NCBI GenBank assembly: GCA_903912445.1
Contig: CAIWHP010000218.1
Location: 36,329-100,328, forward strand
DNA length: 64,000 nt
From: an uncultured Lentisphaerota bacterium
Lineage (GTDB): Bacteria; Verrucomicrobiota; Kiritimatiellia; CAIQIC01
Direction: 5' to 3'
Part shown: positions 3,499 through 24,116 of the stretch, piece after piece
Position numbering within the stretch: position 1 is the stretch's first letter
Layout: each line of letters opens with the position of its first letter
Program-made: the position numbers and the translations under genes
Notes under the pieces: generated by a model
The model's input: only the letters and a program-made list of their open reading frames with translations
Databases searched by the model: none
What the model was told of the DNA's origin: nothing

Positions 3499-3509
3499 GC
3501 AGTAGAAAC

Positions 3510-4464: not shown

Positions 4465-4535
4465 TTGTCGGCTGAGATAACCGCCCTGCGGAGCGGGTGT
4501 CCTGCGTGAAGGCCGCCCCGCGCGACAGACAATTT

Positions 4536-4868: not shown

Positions 4869-4906
4869 GACGGGTCGCTGGCACCCCCGCCTGAGTCCCT
4901 CGATAG

Positions 4907-5026: not shown

Positions 5027-5050
5027 CAACAGCGCCGTCTGGTTTCGTTG

Positions 5051-5078
5051 TTGCCGCAGGAGTTGAATCTTCTATAAT
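5051..5078 (+). promoter_or_regulatory. sigma70-like promoter candidate (TTGCCG-16 bp-TATAAT) immediately upstream of the RHH-like regulator gene
   Basis: TTGCCG 5051-5056, TATAAT 5073-5078, only 7 nt before the GTG at 5086 (would make a leaderless transcript); sequence-only prediction. Confidence 0.25.
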
Positions 5079-5085
5079 CGTTTCC

Positions 5086-5804: not shown

Positions 5805-6137
5805 ATGAATGAGAAGGCAGCCAGGCTTGGTAAACGCGGCAGCAACGCCCTGACGGTGGTGAACGGGGCTTTACTGCTTGCTGCTTTTGGGCCCTTCCAG
5901 CGGCTCCGCTTCCGTTCCGGCGATAGCCCTGCCGCCTTACCGTTGCAGAGCCCTCCGGTCTTCCACTCACGGCTGTCCAGGCACCCACTGCGCGGCGTCG
6001 TGCTGACGGCGATCTTGCGGGCGGTCTTGAGCGGTACAGCCTGGCTCCGACCGCTTTCGAGGCCCTTCGGCGGGCAGCTTCCCTGGCCGGGCGCCGGCAG
6101 GCTCCTGCTGCAGCGCGTGACGGTACTACCGAGGTGA
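5805..6137 (+). CDS. small (110 aa) membrane-associated hypothetical protein, paralog B
   Basis: ATG at 5805; MNEKAARLGKRGSNALTVVNGALLLAAF...LPLQSP...AWLRP; same length and motifs as 4536..4868; stop overlaps the start region of the GT-C gene. Confidence 0.5.
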   Translation: MNEKAARLGKRGSNALTVVNGALLLAAFGPFQRLRFRSGDSPAALPLQSPPVFHSRLSRHPLRGVVLTAILRAVLSGTAWLRPLSRPFGGQLPWPGAGRLLLQRVTVLPR

Positions 6138-6139
6138 GA

Positions 6140-8110
6140 ATGGTCAGCGCGTCACCATCTTATTCGGCGGACGCTGCGCCGTGTCCCCCCGGCCAAGCGC
6201 GCAGGCCCTCTTCACGCCCGACACAACCCTTGGCGCGAGGGCACGCCTGGCTGCTCTACGGCTTACTGCCGCTGCTCGCCTTCGCGGCGACAGGGTGGCT
6301 CTACCGCCATGTCTTCCACTGCGCGCCGATTACCACCGACGAGAACAGCTATATCTTTCAGGCTTACAACTTCCTCGCCGGCGTGATCGCCCGGCCCTGC
6401 CCGCCGTCGCCCGAAAGTTTCTTTCACGCCATGATCATTTGTGACGACCGTGTCGGCTGGCTTTCCCGCTATCCACCCGGCCACGCGCTTTGGTTGTTGC
6501 CCGGCTGCCTGCTGCATCAGCCGCACCTCATGGTGGCGCTGGCAGCCGCCCTGTCCGTGGGGCTCATGGCTCGCGTCGGCGCATTATTCGGGGGCCAGGT
6601 CGCTTGGCTCGCCGCACTTTTGCTGCTGCTCTCCCCTTTCTTTCTCTTCACGCATGGCACCTTGTTGGGCCACACCAGCGGACTGCTGGCCACGCTGCTC
6701 TTGCTGTATGGTTTCATGCGGTGGCAAGGGACGGGCACCGTTCTTTTCGCAGCGCTGGCCGGCCTGGGCTGGAGCTGGCTCTATCTGAATCGCACCTATA
6801 CGGCCGCACTGCTGGTCCCGCCGTTGGCCCTCTACAGCCTGATCACGCTCTTTCGCCAGCGGCACAACAAAACCGCATGGCTCGGCATGCTGCTGTTTGC
6901 CGGCACGGCCGCGACAGGTGTGGCGTTGGTTCTCTTCTACAACTATCTGGCCCTCGGTGATGCTTGGACCATGACCTATTCGTATTTCCGGCCTTCGGAG
7001 ACACTGGGGTTTGGCGTCAAACAAATTGATCATGCCCGTGTCGTGCATACGCTATCCACAGGCTTGCGCATGATGTGGGGCAACCTGCGCCTCTACGATC
7101 AGTGGCTGTTTGGCTTCACGGGCTCGCTCGTGGTGGCCGCGGCAGGGGCCCTTATCGGTTGGCGCAAGCAATGGAGTCCCTTGTTGTTGATGGCGCCGGT
7201 CATGGTCTGGGCCGGGTATGTCCTCTTTTGGTATCACGGCCCGCACGAAGTCGGCCCGGCCTATTATACGGAAACGTTGCCGTTCGTGGTTTTGGCGACC
7301 GCTTTGGGGTTGGCGCGCATACTCGACTTTTTGCGCGCAAGGCACTGGGCCTGGCAGTGCGGCTTGCTTGTGCTCTGCGGCGGATGGCTCACCAGTGATG
7401 CGCGTTTCCTCAGGCAGCAATCCGCCACGGTCAGCACCTTGTGCCAGCCGCTCGGGACCTTGCGCGAGTTTGTGCAGCAGGCGCCATCGAATTCCGTCAT
7501 TGTGACCACCGAGGCCACGCCCTTCACCAGCCGCCGCTATGGCCCTTTGGTCTTCAATCCACAGGGACTCGCGAGTCAGCCCCTGATCGTCCACGCCACA
7601 GGCGCTCAGGATGCCAGTGTGATCCCTAGGATGTTCCCCCACCACCAGGCCTTCACGCTGACCTCAACGGGCGGGCAACATCAACTGGTGCCGCTAATTC
7701 CGGCCGCTTTCAATCTTCCACTCTCCCTCGCAGCGCTGCGCCGCCATACCGGCCAGCGCCTCGGCGGGGACGGGCATCAGCCCGTGGTTCTCACGGCACA
7801 GCAAGCGCGAGACAAACCCGAGTTTCTCGCTTTTGGCCACACCGTGTTGCTGCCACCCGGACGCTTCGCTGCCGAGTTTGATTTTATCATCACCAATGCC
7901 AGCGCAAACGAGACGGTGCTGACCGTGGATATCGCCCGGACCGGCGGCCGTGAAAGCGTGGTGCGGCAAGCCTGCGCGGCCAACACCAGCGCCCCCCTTA
8001 TCGTGACGTTTGCGGTGACCCATTTCACCACGGTAGAACCGCGTGTGTTTTACCAAGGGAGAGGCGATGTCACCCTGCGCGGCATACGTCTGTATGAGCT
8101 TTCGCCGTAG
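6140..8110 (+). CDS. GT-C fold membrane glycosyltransferase (ArnT/PMT-like, GT39/GT83 type) with C-terminal soluble beta-sandwich-like domain
   Basis: ATG at 6140 three bp after upstream stop, preceded by gaggtg. ~11 predicted TM helices in the first 430 aa with loop motifs typical of polyprenyl-phosphate-sugar-dependent GT-C enzymes; ~230 aa C-terminal non-membrane domain. Confidence 0.7.
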   Translation: MVSASPSYSADAAPCPPGQARRPSSRPTQPLARGHAWLLYGLLPLLAFAATGWLYRHVFHCAPITTDENSYIFQAYNFLAGVIARPCPPSPESFFHAMIICDDRVGWLSRYPPGHALWLLPGCLLHQPHLMVALAAALSVGLMARVGALFGGQVAWLAALLLLLSPFFLFTHGTLLGHTSGLLATLLLLYGFMRWQGTGTVLFAALAGLGWSWLYLNRTYTAALLVPPLALYSLITLFRQRHNKTAWLGMLLFAGTAATGVALVLFYNYLALGDAWTMTYSYFRPSETLGFGVKQIDHARVVHTLSTGLRMMWGNLRLYDQWLFGFTGSLVVAAAGALIGWRKQWSPLLLMAPVMVWAGYVLFWYHGPHEVGPAYYTETLPFVVLATALGLARILDFLRARHWAWQCGLLVLCGGWLTSDARFLRQQSATVSTLCQPLGTLREFVQQAPSNSVIVTTEATPFTSRRYGPLVFNPQGLASQPLIVHATGAQDASVIPRMFPHHQAFTLTSTGGQHQLVPLIPAAFNLPLSLAALRRHTGQRLGGDGHQPVVLTAQQARDKPEFLAFGHTVLLPPGRFAAEFDFIITNASANETVLTVDIARTGGRESVVRQACAANTSAPLIVTFAVTHFTTVEPRVFYQGRGDVTLRGIRLYELSP

Positions 8111-8140
8111 CGCCGAGGTAAACCCCAGACTCCATACCAT

Positions 8141-8914
8141 GTGCTTTTCTTCTCCCAGCTTCAGCCTCCAACCCGGATGTCATACATGAACACACCCATG
8201 CAGCCCAGCCTCGAGGGACAGCCCGCACAGCGGGTGGACGTGGTCGTCCCCGTGCTGAACGAGCGGGAGATGCTCCCCCGTTTCCTCAGCCGTATTCAGG
8301 CCCTCGACTTGCCTCTAAACCTGATTTTCGTGGATAACGGTTCCACGGACGGGACCTTGGAGTTTCTGGCCTTGCAACAGGGCGCGAAGGCGGACATCCA
8401 GATCATTGCGCACGGGCGCAATATGGGCTACGGGCGCTCCTTGGCGGACGGGTTACGGGCCTCAACCGCCGCGCGGGTCATCATCATTGACGCCGACTGT
8501 GAATATCCTCCCGAGGCCCTTCCGGACCTATTGGCTGCGCTCGAGCTTTCCCCGATGGTGTATGCAAGCCGTTTCCGAGGCGCCAAGCGCATCGCCATGG
8601 CCCCCTTTCGCCGGTGGGGTAACCGCGGGCTGACAGGCTTTTTTAATTTGCTCTATGGTCAGCACCTTACCGACCTGTACACCGGCATGAAGGCGCTACG
8701 TCGAACCGCCTTCGAAGGTCTGACCTTTACCCGGAACGGTTTTGAACATGTGATGGAGTTGTCGGCCAAAGTGGCCCGGCGCGGGGTGCGGATCGGCGAG
8801 GTGCCGGTGGCCTATGCCCCACGCCAGACCGGCCGTTCCAAAATGCGGCATATCCCCGAATTCCTCAAGGCCGTGTACTGCCTGCTTTACTACCGGAGGA
8901 GCCGCCATGAATGA
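8141..8914 (+). CDS. GT2 family glycosyltransferase, polyprenyl-phosphate sugar synthase-like (DPM synthase / ArnC-like)
   Basis: QRVDVVVPVLNEREMLPRFLSRIQALDLPLNLIFVDNGSTDGT is a GT-A/GT2 N-terminal signature; ~245 aa, no TM, like DPM1/ArnC. True start uncertain (M at 8141, 8177, 8186 or 8198). Confidence 0.75.
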   Translation: MLFFSQLQPPTRMSYMNTPMQPSLEGQPAQRVDVVVPVLNEREMLPRFLSRIQALDLPLNLIFVDNGSTDGTLEFLALQQGAKADIQIIAHGRNMGYGRSLADGLRASTAARVIIIDADCEYPPEALPDLLAALELSPMVYASRFRGAKRIAMAPFRRWGNRGLTGFFNLLYGQHLTDLYTGMKALRRTAFEGLTFTRNGFEHVMELSAKVARRGVRIGEVPVAYAPRQTGRSKMRHIPEFLKAVYCLLYYRRSRHE

Positions 8915-10349
8915 ACGCGTCAGTTTGATTCCTGCCGCCGGTAAAGGTACCCGGGCTTACCCCTATACCAAGAACATCCCCAAAGGACTGCTCAAGATTG
9001 CCGGCAAACCGCTGCTGGAACATCTGGTGATATTGCAGAGGGACCAGTTGCGGATTCAGCACATCTATATGGTGGTGGGAACCACCGGGCAGCAGATCCG
9101 CGACTATTTCGGGGACGGGAGCCGCTGGGGCGTCCGAATTGATTATCTGCAAAACGATCGCGTCGATCTGGGCTTGGCCTATTCCGTCTACTTGGGCGCG
9201 GCGGTCATCCGGGAGCCGTTCCTCTTGATGCTCTCGGACGAATATTATCAGGACACGAACCTCGCCCTGCTGTCAGAGGTTACCCTGCAACAAGACGAAT
9301 TGGGCTGCTGCAGCTTAATCGAAACGCAGGACTGGGATCGCATCCGCCGAAACTACACGGTGACCTTGGAGGATGGTCGCGTCACCCGCCTGCTGGAAAA
9401 ACCCCGGGAACGTCAAGGCGACCTGCTGGGAACCGGGACGTTTCTGCTGTCCCCCAAGATTTTTGACTACCTCAAGCGGGCTTTCTCAGAGCCCTCTGCC
9501 CGGCCCGACTTTATCGGCATGGTGGACCAAGCCGTCCGCACCGGGGAGATCCTCCGCCCGCTGATGCTCACCGGCCAGTACCTCAACATCAACGACGTGG
9601 ACAGCCTGAACTGGGCCAATTTTTTAGGCCGCAGCCGCGATTTACCCAAGGCCAGCCTCAGTGTCATCGTCCAATCCTTTGGGATTGAGGAAGGGCTTTC
9701 CCGCGTCGTGGCGGAGTTCCACGCCTTGCCCCGCGTCACGGAAATCCTGGTGGTGGTGCCGGCCGGAGCTGTCCGTCCCGCATGGATCGATGGCCTTGAA
9801 AAAGCACGCTGGGTGGAGGCCCCGGCAGGGGTTAAGGAATACGGGGGCTTGATTGCCTACGGTCTTGATCAGGCCCGGGGAGAGATTCTTACGGTGGCAG
9901 AAGGAGCCTATTCCTTTTTCCCCGGAGATCTTTCCAAGTTGCTGGCCTATTTGGCCGACGCCGACCTGGTCTTGGGCACACGGACCACGCGCCAGTTGAT
10001 CCAGCAGGGCTCCCGCATGAACGGCGTGGTACGCTTGGCCCATATTTTTCTGGCTATACTGATCGAAATCCTCTGGCTCGACCACCGCATCCGTTTGACC
10101 GATGTGGGTTGTACTTTTCGCGCCATCTGGCGGCACAGCTACTTGGACATCCGGGACCGCTTGAAAAGCGCCGGCCCAGAATATGTCTTGGAAATGGATA
10201 TCGAGACGTTGCGGGCAAGGAAACGCTTGATCGAAGTCCCGGTCAGTTTCCTGCATACGAACGAAGCTCTGGCCGAACGGCATCAGCATGCAAGTGTGTT
10301 TTTCAGGCTGTTGTGGACGATTATCTCTAAACGCTTGGGGCGTGACTAG
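8907..10349 (+). CDS. bifunctional sugar-1-phosphate nucleotidyltransferase (N-term) / GT2 glycosyltransferase (C-term)
   Basis: ATG at 8907 (aa 32 of ORF 8814). N-terminus MNERVSLIPAAGKGTRAYPYTKNIPKGLLKIAGKPLLEH is an NTP-transferase (RmlA/GlmU-like) signature. C-terminal half SVIVQSFGIEEGL...VVVPAGA... is a GT2-like fold. Start overlaps upstream gene by 8 nt. Confidence 0.7.
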   Translation: MNERVSLIPAAGKGTRAYPYTKNIPKGLLKIAGKPLLEHLVILQRDQLRIQHIYMVVGTTGQQIRDYFGDGSRWGVRIDYLQNDRVDLGLAYSVYLGAAVIREPFLLMLSDEYYQDTNLALLSEVTLQQDELGCCSLIETQDWDRIRRNYTVTLEDGRVTRLLEKPRERQGDLLGTGTFLLSPKIFDYLKRAFSEPSARPDFIGMVDQAVRTGEILRPLMLTGQYLNINDVDSLNWANFLGRSRDLPKASLSVIVQSFGIEEGLSRVVAEFHALPRVTEILVVVPAGAVRPAWIDGLEKARWVEAPAGVKEYGGLIAYGLDQARGEILTVAEGAYSFFPGDLSKLLAYLADADLVLGTRTTRQLIQQGSRMNGVVRLAHIFLAILIEILWLDHRIRLTDVGCTFRAIWRHSYLDIRDRLKSAGPEYVLEMDIETLRARKRLIEVPVSFLHTNEALAERHQHASVFFRLLWTIISKRLGRD

Positions 10350-10376
10350 CCCCGACCTAGTTTGCCCGTGTATATC

Positions 10377-10742
10377 ATGAAAAATATTGGCAAGAAACAA
10401 GACGGGATGCGCAGGATGAATAAGCCCACAAGCGACAGGCGCGTTAAAGGCAGGTCAACTTTCGCAAGAAAGCCGGCCTCCAAAAGGCAAGGCGCGAACA
10501 CGTTTGCCCTTCTCTATAACCGGCTGAAAAAAAATATCGTGGCTGTTGAACACGACCGGAGGAATTTTGGCGACAAGGTTTTTATTCTCCGTTTTTGGCG
10601 CAAACTCGCGGTGTTATTAAAAGATGTTCAGCAGCTTCGTACGCTGGCGAAGACAGCCGACGAAAGAAAACAGATAAAGACGATGAGGAATTCTATCGAT
10701 CTTCGAATGACAGCTGCCCTCTTATCCATCACAGCTTTTTGA
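10377..10742 (+). CDS. hypothetical small basic protein in low-GC island
   Basis: ATG at aa 6 of TTG-initiated track ORF 10362; region 10360-10750 is markedly AT-richer than surroundings; no recognisable domain; could be non-coding. Confidence 0.3.
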   Translation: MKNIGKKQDGMRRMNKPTSDRRVKGRSTFARKPASKRQGANTFALLYNRLKKNIVAVEHDRRNFGDKVFILRFWRKLAVLLKDVQQLRTLAKTADERKQIKTMRNSIDLRMTAALLSITAF

Positions 10743-10930
10743 GGCCGGAGCGACAGGGCTGCATCCTTGCAGGCGCGCCCGCTCAACCGGGATGGCGTTG
10801 GACAATCACGACAAGGCAGGCGGCACAGGGCAGGAGCAGCACAAGCCCCCGCCGCCGCGACACTAGCCAGATGAAAACAGGCCCAGCATCACGCACCCGT
10901 CGAGGCGCGGGCTTTTCATGCGTATAAAAG

Positions 10931-11743
10931 TCAGGGTCGCTTGCGCAGGTAGGGTGCAGCCAACAGGCTGAACTCGGGAATGCCCCCGCCGCCCCACTGT
11001 ATACACAGGGCAGCCGAGCGGCTGTGCCGGGCATAATGTTCCACCCGCAGCGGATGCATCCCCGCGGTCAGCGGGACCTTCACCGTCCGCAGACTGTTGG
11101 TCCACGGCTGATCATGCCAGTTGTCGAGCACGCAGCGCTCATCGAGATACAGCCGCAGGCCCTCCTGGCTCTGGCAGGTGAAGCTGTACTCGGCGGTCTG
11201 CGGCGCCTGCAGCCAGCCGGTCCAGCGGGAGGAGAAATCGCCCTTGCCAAACCACCACGGCAGCGGGTGCTCATCCGGTTCGGCCAGCAAAGCCATCGCG
11301 TAGCTATACCAAGCGACCTCGGTAAGGTTGGCCTCCCGATAATAGGTGATCAACAGACCTTCAGGCTGTGACCACCGCCGGAACTCGCCGACGGCCATGG
11401 TGACGAACAGCGCTCCGGCAATGGCCAGCAGATAGGAGGCCGCCCGCCAGCGTGCCCGCCGGCGCAGCGCAGGCGGACAGCGGGCGTAGAGTGCGGCCGC
11501 CAGCTGCTCGGCATATCGGCGCAGCGCCCGCCCCTGTATGTCCAAGGCATCCGGCGTCACCGCGGCCACGTGGGCGGGGGGCGGCGCGAGTTGCAGGCTG
11601 GCGGCCACCTGCACCAACCGTGTGTGCGCCTGCGCCAGCGCGCTCTGCCCGGCGGCCAGTCCGGTCGTCGTCAGTGCGCGGGACAGGTCACGGGCCGCGC
11701 CGTGAATTTTTCCCCGCAAATCCCGATAGAGTTCTGCATCCAT
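10931..11743 (-). CDS. single-pass membrane protein with C-terminal PA14 domain
   Basis: ATG at 11743 (aa 31 of ORF ..11833). TM helix ASYLLAIAGALFVTMAV, then PA14-like domain (GWLQAPQTAEYSFTCQSQEGLRLYLDERCVLDNW ... WGGGGIPEFSLLAAPYLRKRP). Strongly similar to the C-terminal 190 aa of ORF 22088..24112. Confidence 0.7.
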   Translation of the reverse strand: MDAELYRDLRGKIHGAARDLSRALTTTGLAAGQSALAQAHTRLVQVAASLQLAPPPAHVAAVTPDALDIQGRALRRYAEQLAAALYARCPPALRRRARWRAASYLLAIAGALFVTMAVGEFRRWSQPEGLLITYYREANLTEVAWYSYAMALLAEPDEHPLPWWFGKGDFSSRWTGWLQAPQTAEYSFTCQSQEGLRLYLDERCVLDNWHDQPWTNSLRTVKVPLTAGMHPLRVEHYARHSRSAALCIQWGGGGIPEFSLLAAPYLRKRP

Positions 11744-11756
11744 GGTATCGGAGTGC

Positions 11757-12863
11757 CTATAAGAGTGAACGCAGCCAGGACCAGGCGTCCCAAGCATTCT
11801 GGCCCGGATGCACCACCTGCCCCAGCCATACATAGTAGGTGGGCGAAAACGAGGCGATGAGGGCGATGAGCATCAACACGCGCTCGAACTGCGCCCGCAG
11901 CCGCGGCCCCGCCTCGTCCGCCTTTTGCAGCGCGTGGACCAGGCCGTGCCACGCGGGGGCCCAGGCGAGCAGCGCAAACACGCGGGTGGTATCGAGACAG
12001 AAAAAAGTGATGCCGTAGAAGAGGGCCAGCAGGCCGAGCAGGCACCACGCATAACCGCGGTCGAGACGCAGCAGGATGGCCACGCTGCCGGCGAGCGCAA
12101 ACCAGCCCATATTCTGCAGGGAAAAGAGGGCCACCGGCAGGTGCTCCAGGTTGTACTTGATCCAATAGAGTAAATTGCGCTCACCGACAAATTCGGCGCG
12201 CGAAACCACCTCGATGCTGTTGATGTGCAGGAACACCCGGACGGCGAGCCAGCCGGCGAGGACGCCGAGCGTGGCCAGCGCCACATGGAGCCAGGTCACG
12301 CCGCTGTCGCGCGCCCGCCAGCGCAGCAGCCACAGGCCGGGCACGGCAAACATGACGATGGGATGGTTATAGGAGCCCAAGGCGGCGAGCAGGAACACCA
12401 CCCACCCCTGCCGGACGTACAGCATCAAGGCGAGCACCAGGAAGGTGATCGCGTCCGGCATCCCGATCCACGAGAGCAAGACCATGGTCAGCGGGCTGGC
12501 CAACAGGAGTGCCAGCAGGAGCAGGGCCCAGAGCGCCCCATAGCGCCGGCGGGCCGCGCGCACGAGGTAGAGAAAGCCGGCCAGGATGACGGAGAAACAC
12601 AGGAGACCAAAGGGTGCCGGCGCCTGCCAGCCGGTCAGATGCGCCAGCACGGGCAGCAGCGGAGATTCTTGGAAATAATTTTCGCGGTGGATGTCGGTAC
12701 GCTGCGCATAGGGATTCTTGGCCAGCTCGCGATAAAATTCCCGCGGCACCACGCCGAGACCACAGTAGAGGATGGTGGCCACCACCAGCAGCGCCAGCAC
12801 CAGGTAAAAATGCTGCCGCACACAGCGGCGCACCCACGCCTCAAGTTGATCAAAGATGGTCAT
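11757..12863 (-). CDS. polytopic integral membrane protein (9-10 TM), unknown family
   Basis: ATG at 12863 (aa 12 of ORF ..12896); hydrophobic throughout; stop 14 bp before the PA14 gene start, so the two are likely co-transcribed. Confidence 0.6.
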   Translation of the reverse strand: MTIFDQLEAWVRRCVRQHFYLVLALLVVATILYCGLGVVPREFYRELAKNPYAQRTDIHRENYFQESPLLPVLAHLTGWQAPAPFGLLCFSVILAGFLYLVRAARRRYGALWALLLLALLLASPLTMVLLSWIGMPDAITFLVLALMLYVRQGWVVFLLAALGSYNHPIVMFAVPGLWLLRWRARDSGVTWLHVALATLGVLAGWLAVRVFLHINSIEVVSRAEFVGERNLLYWIKYNLEHLPVALFSLQNMGWFALAGSVAILLRLDRGYAWCLLGLLALFYGITFFCLDTTRVFALLAWAPAWHGLVHALQKADEAGPRLRAQFERVLMLIALIASFSPTYYVWLGQVVHPGQNAWDAWSWLRSLL

Positions 12864-13135
12864 CGCCCGGTCACCAGCCGACACGCCCCGGCCCAACCAT
12901 GCGCCGCGGAGCGGGAAGCATACGACGCATGGAGTTAAGCAGGATGCGTACCGGGCGTCACGCGCTTAATTATGCCGTCCCGGATGCCTTATTACGGAGA
13001 AACCGGCGGCGCGTGGGCCGGCGGGCGGCCTGCCGGCGCCGAGGCGCGCCGCGGCCTGTCAGTTTCATGGGCAGGCTTTCCTATTGACAACGCAATTTAT
13101 TTATTTACAGTTGCCGCCCGTACTTGGATGACAAT

Positions 13136-13885
13136 ATGAAAAACTACATTAAAACTGCCGTGGTTATGTTGACCCTCATGTTGCAGGCCGGCGTCTGTGG
13201 TCGCGCGGCCGAACCGGCCGGCCAAAAGCCTGACTGGATCACGGGCCACTTGGAAATCGGCACCCGGACCACCTATTTCCAGCTTCAGGATCAGCATCGG
13301 GATTTCCTGGGTGGTGACCGGTTTTATGGCAGCATCAATGAACTCGATGTCCAGCAGATCTATCTGCCCCTGAAAGTATTCGTCGCCTATAAAGTTAACC
13401 CCTATTGGGGCGTTGAACTGACCGCGGAAAAATTGTCCGTTGAAACCTGGTCGCGTCCGAACCCGCAGGACGCCCCCCCCTGGACGGACGGGACGATCAA
13501 TCTCATGGGCCCCGTCTTCAGCGTGTTCGCCCGCTATCCCAATTCCACCCGGCTCACGCCCTATGCGGGAGTTGGCGCGGCCTATTTCTTTGCCGACTTC
13601 GATGCTGACCCGGCGTGGCATCACCCGGCGGATAAAAGGGAGTATGATCCGACTTTTTATCAGGACTTCAAACTGGATAATTCGCTCGCGTGGCTTGGTT
13701 ATGTCGGCCTGATGATCAACCTGAACGACAACTGGGCGCTTGATTTTATGGCCCGCTACATGGCCATGGATGTAGACGGCGTCACGCTTACCAAGCACGG
13801 TGGTAGTGACTACTATGAGAACGGAACTTTCACATTCCCCATGAAGAACATTTCCTATGGCGTGGGCCTCCGCTATATGTTTTGA
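13136..13885 (+). CDS. outer-membrane beta-barrel protein (OmpW/OmpA-like fold)
   Basis: ATG at 13136 with signal peptide MKNYIKTAVVMLTLMLQAGVCG; alternating hydrophobic pattern and C-terminal ...YGVGLRYMF typical of OM beta-barrels. Confidence 0.65.
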   Translation: MKNYIKTAVVMLTLMLQAGVCGRAAEPAGQKPDWITGHLEIGTRTTYFQLQDQHRDFLGGDRFYGSINELDVQQIYLPLKVFVAYKVNPYWGVELTAEKLSVETWSRPNPQDAPPWTDGTINLMGPVFSVFARYPNSTRLTPYAGVGAAYFFADFDADPAWHHPADKREYDPTFYQDFKLDNSLAWLGYVGLMINLNDNWALDFMARYMAMDVDGVTLTKHGGSDYYENGTFTFPMKNISYGVGLRYMF

Positions 13886-14046
13886 TCACCACCCCGCGCG
13901 CTGCACGGCGGCAGTTCCTCTTTATGTCGAACGTGGCCCATGCCTCCCAACGCTTGGAATTGCTGACCAGGTTCGCGGTCCCCGCTAGCACAAGGGCTGC
14001 AACGCCCACGCCTGTCATCAGCTCGCCCTAGCCGAAGCCGTCGCTC

Positions 14047-16002
14047 ATGAGCGCCACCGTTGCTGAGCCACTCGCCCCGGCCTCCGATTCTGCCCCGGAA
14101 AAGCATTGCTATAGATGGCTGCTGCTCGGAGTGGGCCTGTGCGCCAGCGTGCTCGCCTGGGCCTCCTTGAAGCGGCACTGGAACCTGGCTTCGGCCGAGG
14201 ATCTGGCGATGTTCGACCAGATGCTCTGGAGCGTGCGGCAAGGGCAGGGCCTGCTGTGTTCGGTCAGCGGCAATGGCAACCTTCAGTTTCTGCATCATTT
14301 TTTTGGCGAACATGTCTCGCCCATCCTCTATCTGCTGGCCTGGCCCGCTGCGCTGACGCAAGGCCCCGAGGCCTTGCTCGTCTTTCAAGCGCTGGTTTTC
14401 GCTTTGGCGGCCCTGCCACTTTATCGGTTGGTCTTGCTGCTGACGGCCTCCGGGCGCATCGCCCTCGGCGCAGCCGTGGGTTGGCTGTTCCAACCGGCCC
14501 TCTGGGGCGCGGTCCTATATGATTTCCACATGGAAGCCTTCGAGGCTTTGTTCCTCTTCAGCTTTGCCTTGGCGCTGTGGCGGAATCGTTGGACAGCGGT
14601 GCTCTGGGCCGTGCTCTACGCGAGTTGCAAGGAGGATGCGCCGCTCTACCTGGCGGCGGTCGCTGTGTTGCTCGGCTGGAAAGCCAACCGCTGGCGCATC
14701 GGCTTGGTTGTGGCCATCGGGGCGCTGCTCTATTTCCTGGCGGCCGTGCTGTGGATTGGGCCGGCCTGCTCGCCCTCGGGGCAACATCTGCTGATCGGCA
14801 GGATGCTCACCCCCAAGAACTGCGGCGGGCTGTGGGCCTGGTTGCAGGCCGTGCCGCTGCACCCCACCCGGTGGCTGGCGCTCACCGGGCACCTGCTCGC
14901 CTTGGGACTGCTGCCGGTGCTGGGCGGCCGGCTGCTCATTCCGGCGGCCATGGCAGTGGGCGTGATGTGGATTGCCCGCGGAGAAGCCCAGGCGCTGATC
15001 CTCATCCACTACCCCCTGACCGTCTACCCGTTGCTGGCCTTGGCGGCCGTGGCCGGGCTCGCGCGCATCGTTAACAGTGGCCCGCTGCGTCGGCATCCGG
15101 CCTGTCGCCGGCTGGCCCTGCCGGGCCTCTGCGGCGTCGTGCTCTTGGGCTGGGTGCTGGCGTGGGGCGGACAGCTCGAAAGCATCCGGTCCCTGGGGCT
15201 GGGCCGCGAGGACGGGGGGCTGGCCAGAAGTCGCGCCCTCACCGCCGTGGTGGCGCGCATCCCCGCAGAGCAGCCCGTGTTCGCCTTGCCGACCCTTGCG
15301 GCACATATGGCCCGCCGGCAAACGCTCAATTTGCTGGATGGCTTCCACGAGGCCGACTGGCTGGTCCTCCGGCTGGACGGCCAAGGCTATCCCTATGATC
15401 CGACGGCCTATCACGCCTGGCTGAATCGGCTGCTCGGCGCCAGTTCGCCCTATGGGGTCTACGCTATTGCCAGCGACCAGGTGGTGGTCTTGCGCCGCGG
15501 CCATTCCCGCGCGCTCAATGTAAAGGCCCAGTCGTATGATCGGTTCCTGGAGGCAGAAACACTCAACCACAAAATCGGCCATGGCGCCTTTGACTTCGCC
15601 GCGCGGACCGGCGTGGCCTGGGAGGCCAGTCGTTATGACCGCCAAGATTATATGCTGTTCGGTCCCTATCCCGACCTGGATTTTCCGCGGGGGCGCTATC
15701 TCGTCGGCTTTCGCATCAAAGCCGAAAAAATAAAGACGTCCAACCCGGTCACCCTGGAAGTGACCGGACAACACGGCCGCGTGTTACACGGCAAAATCAT
15801 TTTGGACCGGCCTACCCGTGGCTATCAGTGGCTGGACATGGAGGTGGACAGCACGGGCGGCAGCTTCGAATTCCGCTGCTGGAAGTCTGGTTACGGCAAC
15901 GTCCGGCTGGACGCGGTGCGCTGGCACCTGATGGACTCAAACCAAGCGCCCCATGCGCCGGGAGGCGGGGGCTGCCTGCCAGGCAACCCCGGCACCCTCT
16001 GA
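14047..16002 (+). CDS. DUF2079-family polytopic membrane protein (putative GT-C-like glycosyltransferase) with C-terminal beta-sandwich-like domain
   Basis: N-terminal membrane region ...HHFFGEHVSPILYLLAWP... matches the DUF2079 signature; ~10 TM; C-terminal ~150 aa soluble domain (FGPYPDLDFPRGRYLVGFRIKAEK...) resembles the C-termini of 6140, 16090 and 18052 products. Confidence 0.65.
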   Translation: MSATVAEPLAPASDSAPEKHCYRWLLLGVGLCASVLAWASLKRHWNLASAEDLAMFDQMLWSVRQGQGLLCSVSGNGNLQFLHHFFGEHVSPILYLLAWPAALTQGPEALLVFQALVFALAALPLYRLVLLLTASGRIALGAAVGWLFQPALWGAVLYDFHMEAFEALFLFSFALALWRNRWTAVLWAVLYASCKEDAPLYLAAVAVLLGWKANRWRIGLVVAIGALLYFLAAVLWIGPACSPSGQHLLIGRMLTPKNCGGLWAWLQAVPLHPTRWLALTGHLLALGLLPVLGGRLLIPAAMAVGVMWIARGEAQALILIHYPLTVYPLLALAAVAGLARIVNSGPLRRHPACRRLALPGLCGVVLLGWVLAWGGQLESIRSLGLGREDGGLARSRALTAVVARIPAEQPVFALPTLAAHMARRQTLNLLDGFHEADWLVLRLDGQGYPYDPTAYHAWLNRLLGASSPYGVYAIASDQVVVLRRGHSRALNVKAQSYDRFLEAETLNHKIGHGAFDFAARTGVAWEASRYDRQDYMLFGPYPDLDFPRGRYLVGFRIKAEKIKTSNPVTLEVTGQHGRVLHGKIILDRPTRGYQWLDMEVDSTGGSFEFRCWKSGYGNVRLDAVRWHLMDSNQAPHAPGGGGCLPGNPGTL

Positions 16003-16089
16003 TGGAGTCCCTCTCAGAGGGCGAAACGGGGAAGCCAGCCCTTGGGTTGCCAAGCGATGCGCTAATGGTGCATAATTTTGTCAGGGCCG

Positions 16090-17481
16090 ATGGCCAAGGA
16101 CGGGATTAGCGGCGATCAGGAGGTACTTGTGGATGTGAAGGACAACTTAGCGCAGCGGTGGCGCAGCAGGCTGTTTGCCGCCTGTTTCAGCCTGATCTCC
16201 GTGCTGCTGGCGATGTACGCGTCCGAGCTGCTGCTGCGCCGGATGGCCGCCAAGCAGGGCTGGGACAAATGGGTATACACGACCAACGAGCAAGGGAACC
16301 GCGGACCGGTGGCCGACGGACCCAAACGTCCGGGGATCAGCAGGATTCTGGTGCATGGCGACTCCATCACCTACGGGGTCGGCGTTAGCGATTACAGGGA
16401 GCTCTACCCCTTTCAACTCCTGGCCCGACTCAACAAGACTGGCGAGAAGTATGAAATGCACAGCAGCGGCGTGCCCGGGCGGGAATTGAACGGGCAGGCC
16501 CGCCTGCTGGAAGAAAGCGCCGCCAAGCTGAGCCCCGACCTGATCATCTACCAATGGTTTGTCAACGACGTTGAACTGACCCATGAGAACCGTCCGGAAA
16601 GCCGCTCCACGCTGTGGAGGCGGCTGCCCTGTCACGCCGACCTTAAACGCCGCTCCTACCTCTACTGCCTGTTAGATGAAAGGCTGGCCGGTTGGCTGCC
16701 CGCCTTCAATCGTTCCTATGAACAATACTTGCTGGAGGATTATGCCGAAAAAAGCCGGACCGGCTATTGGTATCCGGTCCGCTACGAGTTCCATCGGTGG
16801 GCCACGCGGGCGACCCTGACCGCCAAACGAAACATCCTGATGCTCTATCCGCTGCTCCCGTTTAAAGGTGAATATCCCCTGCGCTCGTTGCATCAGCGCA
16901 TGGCGGAGATGGCCGGCCGCAGCATTTTCTCCATGCCGGCTTACGAGATGCATATGAAAGACGGGGACAATGTCGAGGATAAAGACTCCACCTATGGCGT
17001 GACGCGCAAAGCCAGCGCCGGCCTGACCCAGACCAACTGCTTTCTCGTGCATGGCCCCTATCTGCCTCTGGGGCCGGGCAACTACGCGGCCACCTTCCGC
17101 CTGAAGGCCGACACGTTTCAGGCTGGTCCCGTGGCCAAGCTGGACGTGGTCTGCGACGAGACGGCCACGACCCTGGCCCAGACGGTTAAAGGCAGCGAGG
17201 ACTTTGCCGCCACCAACAGCTGGCAGGACTTCACCATACCCTTTTCCGTGTCGAAGGCTTGGATCGGCGACATTGAATTCCGTGTCACGTACTTGGGGAA
17301 TGGCAATCTGTCCGTTGATTCGATCCGGTTGCCCACGCAGTACAATGTCGAAGTGCTGGATTTAACGCCCCACCTCAAGGACATGGACACGTGGGCCAGC
17401 CCCACCGACGGCCATCCCAACGCCAAAACACACAAAGCAATGGCCGAGCTCCTTTATCGTCACATCTCGCGGGAGCCGTGA
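16090..17481 (+). CDS. membrane-anchored SGNH/GDSL hydrolase with C-terminal beta-sandwich-like domain
   Basis: ATG at 16090 (aa 5 of TTG ORF 16078); N-terminal TM helix; SGNH block I ILVHGDSITYGVG; C-terminal HGPYLPLGPGNYAATFRLKAD... similar to the module in neighbouring GT-C proteins. Confidence 0.7.
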   Translation: MAKDGISGDQEVLVDVKDNLAQRWRSRLFAACFSLISVLLAMYASELLLRRMAAKQGWDKWVYTTNEQGNRGPVADGPKRPGISRILVHGDSITYGVGVSDYRELYPFQLLARLNKTGEKYEMHSSGVPGRELNGQARLLEESAAKLSPDLIIYQWFVNDVELTHENRPESRSTLWRRLPCHADLKRRSYLYCLLDERLAGWLPAFNRSYEQYLLEDYAEKSRTGYWYPVRYEFHRWATRATLTAKRNILMLYPLLPFKGEYPLRSLHQRMAEMAGRSIFSMPAYEMHMKDGDNVEDKDSTYGVTRKASAGLTQTNCFLVHGPYLPLGPGNYAATFRLKADTFQAGPVAKLDVVCDETATTLAQTVKGSEDFAATNSWQDFTIPFSVSKAWIGDIEFRVTYLGNGNLSVDSIRLPTQYNVEVLDLTPHLKDMDTWASPTDGHPNAKTHKAMAELLYRHISREP

Positions 17482-17562
17482 CGCCCGCCTCCCTCCAAGG
17501 GGCAGGCAGGACACCCTGCGCTGGCGGAGGCGTGTATGAGCGGCGCCTGCAGGCCCGGTGTC

Positions 17563-17591
17563 TTGACGAAAGGATTTCAATATAGTAGTAA
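17563..17591 (+). promoter_or_regulatory. weak sigma70-like promoter candidate in AT-rich intergenic island upstream of DUF5989 gene
   Basis: TTGACG (17563-17568), 17-bp spacer, TAGTAA (17586-17591); prediction only. Confidence 0.2.
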
Positions 17592-17807
17592 AATGGCGTG
17601 TTAAAGCATCTGCGCCAACAGCAAAAACAACAGAAGGCTTTCGCCTGTTGAGCTGTAACCAGCTGCGGCGCAGGGCACCTGGGCGGGGCAGGCTCTTCCG
17701 GCTCCCAGAGGAGTTGGCGGCGGCCGGCGCGGTGGTGAGGGTGTGGTGCAGAAGCTGTTCGGGTCTTTTTCGGGCAAGTTAAAGCTGGAATTCGCGGGAG
17801 GCTGCAC

Positions 17808-17972
17808 ATGAGATTCTTGAGAAATTTGGGACGGCTGCTGAAGGAGTTCCTGGCTTTTGCCTGGCATAAAAAAGCCTGGTGGATCGTGCCCATGATCTTG
17901 GTGCTGCTGCTGCTGATGCTGTTGATTTTTACAGGTCAATCTGCGGCGCCCTTCATCTACACCTTGTTCTGA
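17808..17972 (+). CDS. DUF5989-like small membrane protein (54 aa); absent from the ORF track because it is <60 aa
   Basis: atg at 17808 to tga 17970-17972 encodes MRFLRNLGRLLKEFLAFAWHKKAWWIVPMILVLLLLMLLIFTGQSAAPFIYTLF; the K/R-rich N-terminus, single TM and APFIYTLF C-terminus match the DUF5989 pattern as I recall it. Confidence 0.5.
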   Translation: MRFLRNLGRLLKEFLAFAWHKKAWWIVPMILVLLLLMLLIFTGQSAAPFIYTLF

Positions 17973-18051
17973 GAGCGCTTGCTGCGTGGGTGGCGAGGAA
18001 GGCGCAAGGTGCAGGGACCAGCGCGGGCGAGGTGCGCCGGGCGCCTGAAGG

Positions 18052-21000
18052 ATGTTTCGCGTGATGGCTATGCCTACATTGAACCGCCTGCAAAAACTGG
18101 CGCTGCTGTTGATTGTCGCGCTCGGCTTCGGCCTGCGTTTTGGCGGGCTGGACCATGACCTGCACGAGGAAATCCAGTACCACCCCGACACGCCCAAGCA
18201 AGTGCGGGCGGTGCAGCGTTTTCTGGACGGACAATATTACGCCCACTTCGGGATCCTCGATTACGACGCCTACCCCTACCTCCATTCGCATATCGTGGAA
18301 TATATCAGCCGGGCGGGCTCGGCACTCCACGGGGGCATGCAGGCGCTGACCGGTGTGCCGGGGACGGAGTGGCGGCCGGATTACTATCAAATTTTTTGGC
18401 TGGCGTTGGGTTGGAATGCGCTGTTGTCCACGCTTTTGATCCTGCTGGTCTTCCAACTGGCGCGCGAGAACTGGGACCTGCGCGCGGCCTTCGCCGCCGC
18501 GTTCTTTCTTGCGGTCTCGCCGATGGATGTCATCGCCTGTCATTTTGCCGGCGCCGATACCACGGCCGGTTTTTTTGCCACCGTGACGGTCTTCTTTGCC
18601 TTGCGCATCTACCGCCTGGGGCGTATCCGGGACTATGCCTTGGCCGCGCTGTTTGCCGCCTGCGCTTTTTCCTCGAAATATCATGCGGGCATGGCCCTGC
18701 TGCCGGTGCTCGCGGCCCATGGTCTGCGCATGGGTTCGTGGCGCGCGCAGTGTACCCGCACGGCCGTGGGGCGGCTGGGCCTGCTGGGGCTGATCGGCCT
18801 CACGGCGCTGGTTCTGACCACGCCGGTTTTCTTGACGCACTTCACGGAGACGGTCCGCAATATCATTGGTTTCTTCAACCAGGTCACCAGTTTCCGTGGG
18901 GCCGATGAAACCATTCGCGCCAGTGGCTGGAGCACAAAGCTGGTCTTTGGCCTGCAGCACAACGTGCCGCTGCTCGTCCAGATTCTCGGGCCGCTGGCCT
19001 TTGTGGCCGCGCTGCTCGGCCTCAAGGAGGTGTTCCGGCGCCAGCCCGAACCGCGTGCCCTGATTCTGTATGTTCTGCCGCTCTGCTATTTTCTCGCTGG
19101 CGGCGGGCTCCGGCCGATGGCGCACCCCATCGTCCAAACGCTGACGACCCCGCTGGTCTTTGTGGCGGCGGGGTTGGTGTTCACGCGCCCCTGGCTCCGG
19201 TCCGTGCCGGAGCACCCGCTCCTGGCCGGCCTGCGCAAGGGCCTCATGGCGCTCGCGCTCGGGTTGTTGGCCCTGCACGCGGCCCGCGAGTCGTTCCTGT
19301 TCTGGCATCAGGACACCCGGCGGCTGGCTTTGGCTTGGACGGAGGAAAACGTTCCACCTGCCTGCGCCGTGCACACCGACAACTATTCGTTCTCCTCCGA
19401 TAAATTCGCGTCGCCAACCAACGCGACAGGCTGGTTTCAGGCGGTGGCCGCCCAGCCGCCGGCCGCACCCTATGGCCACCTGAAGAGCTTTTCGGTGGAA
19501 ACTGACGGGTTGCCGATTCATCGCAACATCCCTGTGCACCTCTTCCTACAGCCTTCCGCCTGGCTGCAACCGGGCTTCCAGCTGCCCATCGGCCAGCGCT
19601 CCGCCTCGGAAGACGGCAACCGCATCATCTGCGACAACGGGCCGGAATTCGTGCGGAGCGAAAAGCTGCTCAACCTGCAAGCGGCCGACAAGCCTGTGGT
19701 GCGCTGCCTGGTCAGTGCCACGCCGTTGCGTGAAGCATGGATTGGCGTGCAAAACGGCGCTGCGCCCAATTTCGTGGAAGTCCACTTTGGCGGCTCCTCA
19801 CGCCGCTCCAGCATGAAGCCCGGCGAGGTCAGCTGGTGGCGCATCCCCGCGCCTCGCGCCAGCTGGCCCATCGACCCCAACCATGCCTGGTACCGCCTGC
19901 GTGTCCAAGCCCACTACGGCCGCGCCCGCGTCTTGTTGGCGACACGGCCGGAGGAACTCGGCGTCTTCTTGTTCAACGCGGGCCGCTACGCTGACGCCTT
20001 GCCCTGTCTTTTGAAGACCACGGCCGCGCACCCAGCCCTGTTGGCCACCTTGGCGTTGATCTGCGCACAGCAGACCGGTCACGACCTGGCGCCGGCCACA
20101 CGCGCCCAACTAGAGCGACGTGCCCAGCCGCTGGCCGACATGCGCGACAGCGCCAGCTGCCGCCAGGTGGCCGGCATTGCTCCGGCCTATCTGGAGGCGC
20201 TCGATTTCATCAAGCTGGAGTGCGCCGGGTTTGTACACTCCCCCGGGTGCCGCCGGATCGACGACTTGGCGGCTGCGGGCCGGCTGGCACTTGAAAAGGT
20301 GCCTTTGACGGGGGCCGCAGCGACTAACTATCCGCCGTTTTCCATCTGCTCGCCGATGCTCCAACTCGACCCCGGCGTCTATACCCTGCAGCTGCGGGTC
20401 CGGGGCAGCGACCGGACCACCGCGCCACTCCGTTGGCGCATGGAAGCACAGGATATGTTTGGCGCCAGCCTCGCGGAGACCGACGTGGAACTGCCGCCGC
20501 TGGACAACCGTAATTACACCAACGTCACCGCCACCTTTCACATGCCGCTGGCGCCGCCCGAAGTCCGCCTGGTGTTCAAGCCGCAGACGTTGGACGGCGT
20601 GGTGCTCGACGAAGTGGCCATCAAGCCGGACGTGCTGGCAACCATCCGCTGGTTGCAGCAGACGCGACAGCAGGCCAGCCCGTTGCGCGGGGCGCTGCCA
20701 GCGCCAGCGTTGTTCCACCATAACGTGGATACGATTTTTCAGGGCGGTTTACGGTTGGAGCAAATAACGTGCGACCGGACGACGCTCCAACCCGGACAAG
20801 CGCTCCACGTTGGCGTCCAGTTCCGCCTGGAAGCACCCGGTTTGAACACCGCCGGCCTGGCCTTTTTTATTCACGTTGTGGATCCGACAGGGCAGATAGC
20901 GTTTCAGGGTGACTTTGGGCTGGCTGATCTGCTGCAGGTCTACGCACCACGCATTGCCGCACCGGCGCAAGCGTACAAGACCCTCGCGGTCCCGGCCACC

Positions 21001-21141
21001 CTGAAGGCCGGGGCCTACGCCCTCCGCGTAGGCGTCTGCCGGGTGGAAGACGGCAAGCGGTTGCGGGTGCAAAGCAGCCCCTTGCCCTATAAATCCAACG
21101 CCGTCCAGCTCCCGACCCCGCTGGTCATCGCTCCCCCTTGA
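18052..21141 (+). CDS. large GT-C fold membrane glycosyltransferase (ArnT/PMT-like) with TPR-like and tandem beta-sandwich C-terminal domains
   Basis: ATG at 18052; first ~450 aa are polytopic with PMT_2/ArnT-like loop motifs; then ~580 aa extracytoplasmic region with a TPR-like segment and two carbohydrate-binding-like beta-sandwich domains. Confidence 0.7.
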   Translation: MFRVMAMPTLNRLQKLALLLIVALGFGLRFGGLDHDLHEEIQYHPDTPKQVRAVQRFLDGQYYAHFGILDYDAYPYLHSHIVEYISRAGSALHGGMQALTGVPGTEWRPDYYQIFWLALGWNALLSTLLILLVFQLARENWDLRAAFAAAFFLAVSPMDVIACHFAGADTTAGFFATVTVFFALRIYRLGRIRDYALAALFAACAFSSKYHAGMALLPVLAAHGLRMGSWRAQCTRTAVGRLGLLGLIGLTALVLTTPVFLTHFTETVRNIIGFFNQVTSFRGADETIRASGWSTKLVFGLQHNVPLLVQILGPLAFVAALLGLKEVFRRQPEPRALILYVLPLCYFLAGGGLRPMAHPIVQTLTTPLVFVAAGLVFTRPWLRSVPEHPLLAGLRKGLMALALGLLALHAARESFLFWHQDTRRLALAWTEENVPPACAVHTDNYSFSSDKFASPTNATGWFQAVAAQPPAAPYGHLKSFSVETDGLPIHRNIPVHLFLQPSAWLQPGFQLPIGQRSASEDGNRIICDNGPEFVRSEKLLNLQAADKPVVRCLVSATPLREAWIGVQNGAAPNFVEVHFGGSSRRSSMKPGEVSWWRIPAPRASWPIDPNHAWYRLRVQAHYGRARVLLATRPEELGVFLFNAGRYADALPCLLKTTAAHPALLATLALICAQQTGHDLAPATRAQLERRAQPLADMRDSASCRQVAGIAPAYLEALDFIKLECAGFVHSPGCRRIDDLAAAGRLALEKVPLTGAAATNYPPFSICSPMLQLDPGVYTLQLRVRGSDRTTAPLRWRMEAQDMFGASLAETDVELPPLDNRNYTNVTATFHMPLAPPEVRLVFKPQTLDGVVLDEVAIKPDVLATIRWLQQTRQQASPLRGALPAPALFHHNVDTIFQGGLRLEQITCDRTTLQPGQALHVGVQFRLEAPGLNTAGLAFFIHVVDPTGQIAFQGDFGLADLLQVYAPRIAAPAQAYKTLAVPATLKAGAYALRVGVCRVEDGKRLRVQSSPLPYKSNAVQLPTPLVIAPP

Positions 21142-24112: not shown

Positions 24113-24116
24113 GGCC

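Follow-up and report, generated by a model that had tools for sequence, protein, structure and literature searches.

Divergent copies of a large unannotated domain family with a predicted carbohydrate-binding-module-like fold on four neighbouring envelope enzymes from an uncultured lake bacterium

A homologous module of approximately 115-140 amino acids is present in four cell-envelope enzymes encoded near one another in an uncultured lake bacterium, by the genes here called A, G, H and I. All carriers detected in the window, the 64-kb stretch of DNA analysed here, are located within 15 kb, on the same strand and among other glycan genes (Table 1). All four copies of the module are divergent members of a single large, so far unannotated domain family with a predicted beta-jelly-roll fold like that of carbohydrate-binding modules (CBMs). 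The complete reading, in which the module would also be extracytoplasmic, bind glycan and hold its partner enzyme on a polysaccharide, is given a probability of approximately 0.6. The family is a new one within a familiar type of domain, and the type of system is not new.

Table 1. Positions of the module copies, their host genes and the context genes in the window.
Feature	Coordinates	Strand	Evidence
Gene A, 658-aa polytopic membrane protein	6134..8110	+	ORF
Module copy in A, aa 545-658	7766..8107	+	External-only family HMM, E 2.3e-11
Context genes B and C	8141..10349	+	Pfam, NCBIfam
Gene G, DUF2079 polytopic membrane protein, 651 aa	14047..16002	+	Pfam DUF2079 5.3e-39, aa 43-431
Module copy in G, aa 504-632	15556..15942	+	External-only HMM, E 1.1e-21
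Gene H, SGNH/GDSL hydrolase, 467 aa	16078..17481	+	Pfam Lipase_GDSL_2, aa 93-167
Module copy in H, aa 293-425	16954..17352	+	External-only HMM, E 6.4e-35
Gene I, PMT_2-type GT-C glycosyltransferase, 1029 aa	18052..21141	+	Pfam PMT_2 2e-08, PMT 3.3e-06
Module copy in I, aa 725-863, divergent, internal	20224..20640	+	Orthologue profile vs family
Extra C-terminal beta-rich domain of I, aa 864-1029	20641..21138	+	hhalign vs module family 1.8%

Results

From a recurring motif, the initial annotation had proposed that one module is common to the four products. Profile comparisons bear this out for A, G, H and I, and the motif agrees with the consensus of the family, fGPY..lP.G.Y.a.FRLK ... lDV ... 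lEFRV..G...l.vD.v.V. Alignment of the window copies in pairs gave a mixed outcome: BLASTP linked A with H (7e-4) and G with H (2.5e-4) marginally, H with I at 0.23 and no other pair. Since the pairwise links were thus weak and confined to A-H and G-H, profiles were needed, and these were decisive. HMMs from which one member was left out retrieved the omitted copy as the top match each time among the 565 six-frame ORFs of the window: H from G and A (1e-7), A from H and G (5.5e-4) and G from H and A (5.1e-4). An HMM made from 81 external domains and no window sequence matched all three with the E-values listed in Table 1. No further module copy was found in the 64-kb window by the external-only, leave-one-out and I-type HMMs.

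As a single sequence, I gave no significant HMMER match to the external-only HMM (E 3.6). The same module compared singly with the family by hhalign reached 69% and a score of 31.7, against a mean of 11.0 (sd 2.1, maximum 18.7) for 200 shuffled controls, and full-length I scored 34.0 against a maximum of 18.9 among 32 other real proteins of the window. Profiling I with orthologue data (2 sequences) gave 95%, and the orthologue profile of 14 sequences aligned with the external-only profile at 97.1% (E 6.9e-11) over 122 columns, the whole domain. Reciprocally, an HMM of I-type modules alone matched the module copies of canonical members (P0002, for example, at 1.5e-17). The membership of I was resolved only with the orthologues, in profile-profile and reciprocal searches; the 13 orthologues or paralogues are from MAGs of Lentisphaerae, Kiritimatiellia and Verrucomicrobiota.

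A resemblance of the four segments by chance or composition would fit the weak pairwise E-values and the failure of single-sequence HMMER to detect I, but is already refuted by external-only profile E-values from 1e-11 to 1e-35, the 97% profile-profile match, the positive reciprocal HMM and clean shuffle and real-protein controls, and retains practically no probability. Where alignable, the window copies are approximately 20-29% identical. Nearly invariant in the family are G, P, F, E and R at positions 24, 25, 38, 98 and 100, that is, the G-P of GPY, the F of FRLK and the E..R of EFR. All five are retained in H and G. At the invariant sites A has the variants GHT, FDF and EPR, and I has SPM (for GPY), LRV and EVR (for EFR); the E and R of the EFR motif are common to all four copies.

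The enzymes had been described as ending in the module. This is true of A and G but not of H, in which the module is inserted in the SGNH domain, nor of I, in which a further domain follows. The A module is truly C-terminal, and the hhalign match to the A3 profile, which includes A itself, spans aa 545-657; its closest relative is the module of P0124 (54% identity over 132 aa), a protein with an unrelated N-terminal region. The G module is followed by a tail of approximately 19 aa. H has a single N-terminal hydrophobic anchor and carries its module between SGNH block III and a block V-like DGHPN motif, in the order GDS (aa 94-96), FVND (aa ~163-166), module and DGHPN (aa ~448-452), with blocks I and III at aa 94-166; the Lipase_GDSL_2 match covers only profile positions 2-77 of 178. 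The same insertion layout was found in P0131, P0111 and P0001, and in the first two the final ~40 aa of the SGNH domain are located downstream of the module.

The GT-C protein I has approximately 9 TM segments followed by a soluble region of 620 aa. Its module precedes a beta domain of approximately 165 aa that is unrelated to the module, is kept in the I orthologues and displays a weak Pfam MG2 hint (E 0.05). This last domain was considered as a second module copy and rejected on its hhalign value against the family (Table 1). A word-index homologue search with the I tail returned no relatives.

An exhaustive representative search revealed 2,978 representative clusters of the module family (50% identity) at E<=1e-3, including tandem arrays of up to 12 copies, whereas word-index homologue searches with the module had returned 1 and 7 relatives only. 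No model in Pfam or NCBIfam covers the module, none of the Pfam CBM models was significant on 41 modules (best CBM_4_9, E 0.15), and the module profile gave nothing below E 0.5 against all PDB sequences, so that no family member with a solved structure or a characterised function came to light. The public names of family members are 'hypothetical protein' or 'uncharacterized membrane protein' only. Membership in Wzt_C (PF14524) was rejected: the match was seen in I only, with 15.2-16.5 bits over ~30 residues (E 0.009-0.02) against a gathering threshold of 30.4 bits.

Among 66 representatives, the fusion partners included DUF2079 (11) and the GxGYxYP putative glycoside hydrolase (5), as well as GH43, GH130, AlgX/DHHW, dockerin, BACON, B_lectin, PA14, CBM_4_9 and S8 protease; fusions to proteases, RHS and toxin domains also occur in the family. 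The architecture of DUF2079 plus module was present in 15 of the 150 top family representatives. The recognisable partners are mostly glycan-active or secreted proteins, a distribution which fits the substrate-binding role that the initial annotation had suggested. A CBM is a discrete non-catalytic fold within a carbohydrate-active enzyme; the module has discrete boundaries, and it is carried by GT-C, SGNH and DUF2079 proteins in the window and by GH43, GH130, GxGYxYP and AlgX-like proteins outside it.

AF2 models were compared with known structures for two copies. The H module was modelled with a pLDDT of 92.5 and eight strands; the I module (pLDDT 87.2) has eight strands and one short helix, and its model was built with the family alignment and is thus a consistency check and not an independent test. 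Both models are all-beta, in agreement with the non-catalytic beta-sandwich proposed from the sequence, and their top structural matches are overwhelmingly CBMs, with a similarity that amounts to 8-19% identity only. The predicted fold is that of CBM4/6/22/35-type modules. The same jelly-roll also occurs outside lectins, in MAM, ephrin-receptor and GOLD domains, Cry toxin domain III and phage fibres.

The designation of A as a GT-C enzyme could not be confirmed. A has approximately 10 hydrophobic segments and a soluble tail of ~250 aa, lacks a Pfam, NCBIfam or PDB sequence match and gave <2% by hhalign against PMT_2-type and DUF2079 profiles; its identity as a GT-C is plausible by context only, as it adjoins B and C. 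B is a GT2 like the polyprenyl-phosphate hexose/Ara4FN/GalNAc transferases according to Pfam and NCBIfam, and in C a sugar-1-phosphate nucleotidyltransferase is joined to a second GT2 part, which is AglJ-like. The NCBIfam matches of B and C are AglJ (1.9e-27), dolichyl-phosphate hexose transferase (1.4e-19), ArnC-like (2e-17), PpgS (2.2e-11) and AglF (8.6e-30), and these matches suggest that B and C together could supply a lipid-linked (polyprenyl-phosphate) sugar donor for a periplasmic transferase. In I, the PMT_2 and PMT matches are above gathering. G matched the I family at 67% by hhalign, over 97 columns only. A crude count of hydropathy and positive-inside K/R favoured an outside location for the G and I tails, across the membrane from a cytoplasmic N-terminus, and was ambiguous for A and H.

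The initial annotation had further suggested that the module would tie the four enzymes to one pathway. This was not supported: the copies are mutually distant, the family is promiscuous and synteny is limited. In similarity lists of about 400 family domains, each window copy places the others between rank 92 and rank 402. The copies are each far closer to the module carried by that enzyme type in other organisms: the H module to those of P0001, P0131 and P0111, and the G module to that of P0057, a DUF2079 orthologue (53% identical). Each fusion is an old one, inherited along with its own enzyme type, and the module is no cassette that spread recently inside the locus. As the copies are not mutual nearest relatives and each goes with its particular type of enzyme, a common pathway does not follow from the module alone. 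The synteny of G-H-I was retained only in a 92%-identical sister MAG, in which the block D-E-F-G-H-I-J-K is conserved and A-B-C is absent upstream of D. I-like GT-Cs in 11 other loci are without G- or H-like neighbours.

These observations bear on a possible, though rather unlikely, explanation, in which the modules bind glycans but each a different ligand or epitope, and co-occur as members of a family common on envelope enzymes, without a shared substrate or pathway. The similarity ranks and aligned identities above, the promiscuity of the family, the closest modules on the same enzyme type elsewhere, the 11 I-like loci and the position of A-B-C in the sister MAG all point in this direction. 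On the other side are the placement of all four carriers within 15 kb on one strand among glycan genes and the conservation of the D to K block; moreover, steps on one polymer may need differing epitopes, so divergence is compatible with one pathway. A common pathway for the four enzymes is plausible from the clustering of the genes, and not from the module.

Discussion

The role of the module may be depicted as follows: each copy would be located on the extracytoplasmic side and bind a polysaccharide, and binding would keep the catalytic partner on the glycan being built or modified. The partners held in this way would be two polytopic transferases (I and, putatively, A), the DUF2079 membrane protein (G) and the SGNH enzyme (H), a putative esterase or acyltransferase. 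Weighing the analysis as a whole, we regard such an extracytoplasmic glycan-binding module, holding each enzyme on its polysaccharide, as the most likely function.

Alternatively, the module could be a protein-protein docking or scaffolding domain assembling a periplasmic enzyme complex, for instance with the outer-membrane barrel F or with D and K, two membrane proteins that carry PA14. The locus does encode such putative partners, and the tandem arrays and the protease, RHS and toxin fusions would fit a general adhesion module. We nevertheless hold docking to be improbable, given that the top structural matches are overwhelmingly CBMs, that most recognisable partners are glycan-active enzymes, that no candidate partner was found conserved alongside the module (the neighbours being kept in the sister MAG only), and that the CBMs described on GT-C and SGNH enzymes are glycan binders (PMC11127046, PMC9487903). 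Still less probable, to a degree that makes it hardly credible, is an inert, ligand-free spacer or stabilising domain: the near-invariant residues may be core or structural ones and the GT136 enzyme ORF12 is active even without its CBM (PMC11127046), but a domain that is kept across ~3,000 clusters, multiplied into arrays and repeatedly recruited by glycan enzymes argues for a selected binding function.

Glycan binding by the module would have several precedents. The CBM of GT136 ORF12 binds the unmodified O-polysaccharide backbone (PMC11127046), and EmbC and AftD have CBMs that bind the acceptor, as stated in PMC11127046 with reference to Alderwick 2011. EmbA/B/C, AftD and GT136 ORF12 are polytopic transferases that use lipid-linked donors and have an extracytoplasmic beta-rich domain after the last TM helices; I has the same layout, as A probably does, and B and C beside A resemble the donor-making part of a three-component system. 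Among SGNH enzymes, the CBM is C-terminal in AlgX and inserted within the SGNH domain in Ape1 of Neisseria, and the CE2/CE17 esterases are likewise equipped with a CBM (PMC9487903). H resembles Ape1 in having a jelly-roll inside the SGNH domain, in its case between block III and block V, a likeness of layout only, and the H module has no sequence relation to the CBMs of AlgX, Ape1 or CE2/CE17; one member of the module family is fused to an AlgX/DHHW-type domain.

With CBM4, CBM6, CBM22, CBM35 and CBM36 the module shares the beta-jelly-roll at 8-19% identity, with no significant match to Pfam CBM models. The hosts of those CBMs are secreted, degradative glycoside hydrolases and esterases, whereas here the module is carried by membrane enzymes of biosynthesis or modification. 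Wzt_C, the O-antigen-binding domain of the ABC transporter protein Wzt, likewise recognises glycan through a beta-sandwich and is attached to a protein of polysaccharide assembly, but is cytoplasmic, whereas we infer a location outside the cytoplasm for the modules.

A more far-reaching proposal is that the module founds a new carbohydrate-binding family for envelope glycan or exopolysaccharide, and that in this Lentisphaerae/Kiritimatiellia-type locus four successive periplasmic enzymes, two of them transferases, one a DUF2079 protein and one an SGNH enzyme of acyl modification, each hold the same nascent polymer in a CBM-coordinated line of assembly and decoration. We put this forward tentatively and consider it unlikely; if true, DUF2079 proteins would gain a first functional handle as glycan-acting enzymes. 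The module family would reveal no new mechanism, and the module alone is no proof of a shared pathway. The layout of a biosynthetic membrane enzyme with a CBM, known from EmbC, AftD, GT136, AlgX and Ape1, would then also include DUF2079 proteins and uncultured bacteria of the PVC group. The gap in Pfam, NCBIfam and PDB comprises approximately 3,000 clusters, and with a single model many envelope and secreted proteins now named 'hypothetical' would gain an annotation.

Module copies in A, G, H and I

The region carries a plus-strand series of envelope-glycan genes (A, B, C, G, H and I), and the domains of the locus genes were assigned from Pfam and NCBIfam. Four of the products, A, G, H and I, share an all-beta module of about 115-140 aa.

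Features of the module-bearing locus, in window coordinates
Feature	Position	Strand	Description
SGNH gene	3156-4277		SGNH
Repeat copy 1	4091-4229		direct repeat, 139 nt
Small ORF	4497-4868	+	upstream of A
ORF	4807-5565		translated repeat copy 2
Repeat copy 2	4887-5025		direct repeat, 139 nt
Small ORF	5805-6137	+	upstream of A
A	6134-8110	+	polytopic membrane protein, 658 aa
Segment of A aligned to the P0124 module	7712-8107		
B	8141-8914	+	GT2
C	8814-10349	+	sugar-1-P nucleotidyltransferase and GT2-like part
D	10931-11833	-	300 aa membrane protein, C-terminal PA14 domain; between C and G
E	between C and G	-	membrane protein
F	13124-13885	+	outer-membrane beta-barrel protein
G	14047-16002	+	DUF2079
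H	16078-17481	+	SGNH
I	18052-21141	+	PMT_2-type GT-C
C-terminal domain of I	20641-21138	+	beta-rich
J	after I	+	SGNH
K	22088-24217	-	709 aa membrane protein with PA14; after I

In BLASTP comparisons of the full proteins, weak matches were obtained for A with H (E 7e-4, 29% over 97 aa) and for G with H (E 2.5e-4, 24% over 134 aa); H with I gave E 0.23, and the remaining three pairs among the four proteins gave no match. Leave-one-out HMMs were run against all 565 six-frame ORFs in the window, and the omitted member was the best non-member match each time (H at 1e-7 from G and A, A at 5.5e-4 from H and G, G at 5.1e-4 from H and A). The I copy scored at noise level, yet its weak alignment fell consistently on the correct motif. 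An HMM of 81 full-length domains from outside the window gave E-values of 6.4e-35 (H), 1.1e-21 (G) and 2.3e-11 (A), and detected no additional copy in the window. Such scores place the A, G and H copies in one family beyond doubt.

The copy in I required profile comparison. As a lone sequence it reached only E 3.6 in HMMER with the external-only HMM, and hhalign against the family gave 69% probability and a score of 31.7 (200 shuffles: mean 11.0, sd 2.1, max 18.7). Full-length I scored 34.0, and the other 32 real window proteins 18.9 or less. A word-index search returned zero relatives of the I tail; pattern scans found a metagenomic orthologue (60%) as well as 12 orthologues or paralogues in lake MAGs of Lentisphaerae, Kiritimatiellia and Verrucomicrobiota. 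With one orthologue added, hhalign rose to 95% (E 4e-8, 128 columns), and 14 I-type sequences aligned to the external-only family alignment over the entire domain (97.1%, E 6.9e-11, 122 columns). Conversely, an HMM of the I-type modules alone recovered canonical members, with the matches falling on their modules (P0002 1.5e-17, P0047 1.5e-15, P0149 3.4e-12), and also matched the H homologues P0131 and P0001. Judged by these profiles, the I module is a divergent family member. The homology proposed in the initial annotation is thus upheld, for A, G and H by the external-only HMM and for I by the orthologue profiles; pairwise BLASTP was weak, and profiles place all four copies in one family.

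Anatomy of the host proteins

All four enzymes had been described as ending in the module, which is correct for A (module at aa 545-658) and G only. In H the module is an insertion in the SGNH domain: GDS and FVND blocks (aa 94-166) precede it (aa 293-425), a block V-like DGHPN motif follows, and the Pfam SGNH model matched over the first 77 positions only. The homologues P0131, P0111 and P0001 have the same layout. In I the module occupies aa 725-863 of 1029, and past it lies a further beta-rich domain of about 165 aa, kept in orthologues, with a faint Pfam MG2 match (E 0.05). These last 165 aa were rejected as a member of the module family (hhalign 1.8%).

The previous assignment of A as GT-C was unconfirmed; Pfam, NCBIfam and PDB gave no match, and hhalign stayed below 2% against PMT_2-type or DUF2079 profiles. 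GT-C is a reasonable reading of A from its context, because of a TDENSY stretch past the first hydrophobic segment and the neighbours B and C. In NCBIfam, B is similar to polyprenyl-phosphate sugar transferases/synthases (AglJ, ArnC, PpgS), and C is an AglF-like nucleotidyltransferase that continues into a second AglJ-like GT2 part in the same protein. Together, A, B and C could be a three-component system for periplasmic glycosylation. The C ORF as listed overlaps B by 100 nt, so the true start of C is probably the ATG near 8904.

D and K share a C-terminal TM segment and PA14 domain (49% identity over 178 aa, E 1e-50; common terminus LLAAPYLRKRP). PA14 is a second lectin-type module here, giving the locus two different shared putative glycan-binding domains. 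Upstream of A, the repeat copies are 81% identical and spaced 796 nt apart. Copy 2 looks like what is left of a duplication of the SGNH gene's 3' end, and its translation in ORF 4807-5565 repeats '...QQAA.VDL.P.ML.PDGQ.PR......DLCHLT'. The two small ORFs encode similar N-termini (MSEKADRLCKGLSLALACVNGGVLFVAF... and MNEKAARLGKRGSNALTVVNGALLLAAF...); they may represent a pair of small membrane-protein paralogues or a piece of the same local duplication.

Size, fold and partners of the family

A search of 1.84 billion representative proteins with the H, G and A modules and one metagenomic H homologue returned 2,978 proteins at E<=1e-3, of which 618 reached <=1e-10 and 33 reached <=1e-30. The best matches contain 2-12 copies in tandem, and 422 module domains were counted locally in 151 proteins. 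Giant proteins such as P0003 (2720 aa) and P0002 (1408 aa) have up to 12 tandem modules; P0003 has no recognisable domain besides them. The multi-copy P0007 (750 aa), from a Patescibacteria MAG, is named merely hypothetical protein. No Pfam or NCBIfam model covered the module in the window copies or in the 41 + 66 + 17 outside members checked, nor did the family profile match PDB sequences. Public records name members 'hypothetical protein' or 'uncharacterized membrane protein'.

AlphaFold2 modelling of the H module with a 41-sequence family alignment (pLDDT 92.5, pTM 0.85) predicted eight strands in a CBM4/6/22/35-like beta-jelly-roll, in agreement with the beta-sandwich-like module first suggested. 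The fold resembles these CBMs, but the module is a separate family by sequence.

Among 66 representatives, the module was fused to DUF2079 (11/66), to a GxGYxYP putative glycoside hydrolase (5/66), to GH43, GH130, AlgX/DHHW, dockerin, BACON, B_lectin, PA14 and CBM_4_9, and also to LTD, S8 and trypsin proteases, CHAP, RHS and ETX/MTX2. P0137 combines PMT_2 and P0139 an AlgX-like domain with the module, and 15 of the 150 top matches carry DUF2079 with 1-6 modules. The partners are glycan-active or belong to secreted settings.

Linkage and proposed role

When approximately 400 family domains are ordered by similarity to one of the four window copies, the other window copies come in at places 92 to 402. 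The nearest relatives of the H module are modules of SGNH homologues (64%, 44% and 43%), and that of the G module is from a DUF2079 orthologue (53%). The A module is nearest to that of P0124 (641 aa, metagenomic; 54% over 132 aa). The ~510 aa that precede the module in P0124 do not resemble A, which is evidence for movement of the module between hosts. On these relationships the fusions are old, with occasional shuffling in a promiscuous family. Linkage evidence is mixed. A 15-kb stretch of the 64-kb window holds all four carriers, and the closest relative, a locus of the sister MAG (L003, contig CAITZM010000115.1, uncultured Lentisphaerae LJ_bin-4696; I 92% identical), retains D-E-F-G-H-I-J-K in order; A-B-C are absent upstream of D there, with a J-like SGNH gene instead. 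Eleven more distant I-like loci have no G- or H-like neighbours. Another contig of the sister MAG encodes a 49%-identical I paralogue (L004).

In GT136 ORF12, a GT-C enzyme, a C-terminal CBM binds the unmodified O-polysaccharide backbone, and the acceptor glycan is the ligand of the EmbC and AftD CBMs (PMC11127046). The C-terminal jelly-roll CBM of AlgX aids alginate binding, and Ape1 has a CBM inserted in its SGNH domain (PMC9487903). On these direct precedents, each module would bind polysaccharide outside the cytoplasm and would hold its enzyme to the substrate. For the tails of G and I, an outside location is supported by a crude count of hydropathy and positive-inside residues; the count is ambiguous for A and H. 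Of the earlier proposal of a substrate-binding module tying the enzymes to one pathway, the first half is likely by analogy, as a CBM-like domain; given the mutual ranks, the promiscuity and the mixed linkage, the module by itself is not shown to link the four enzymes to one pathway. The module is a new, sizeable and unannotated family of a well-known domain kind, and it occurs on both biosynthetic and modifying envelope enzymes in uncultured PVC bacteria.
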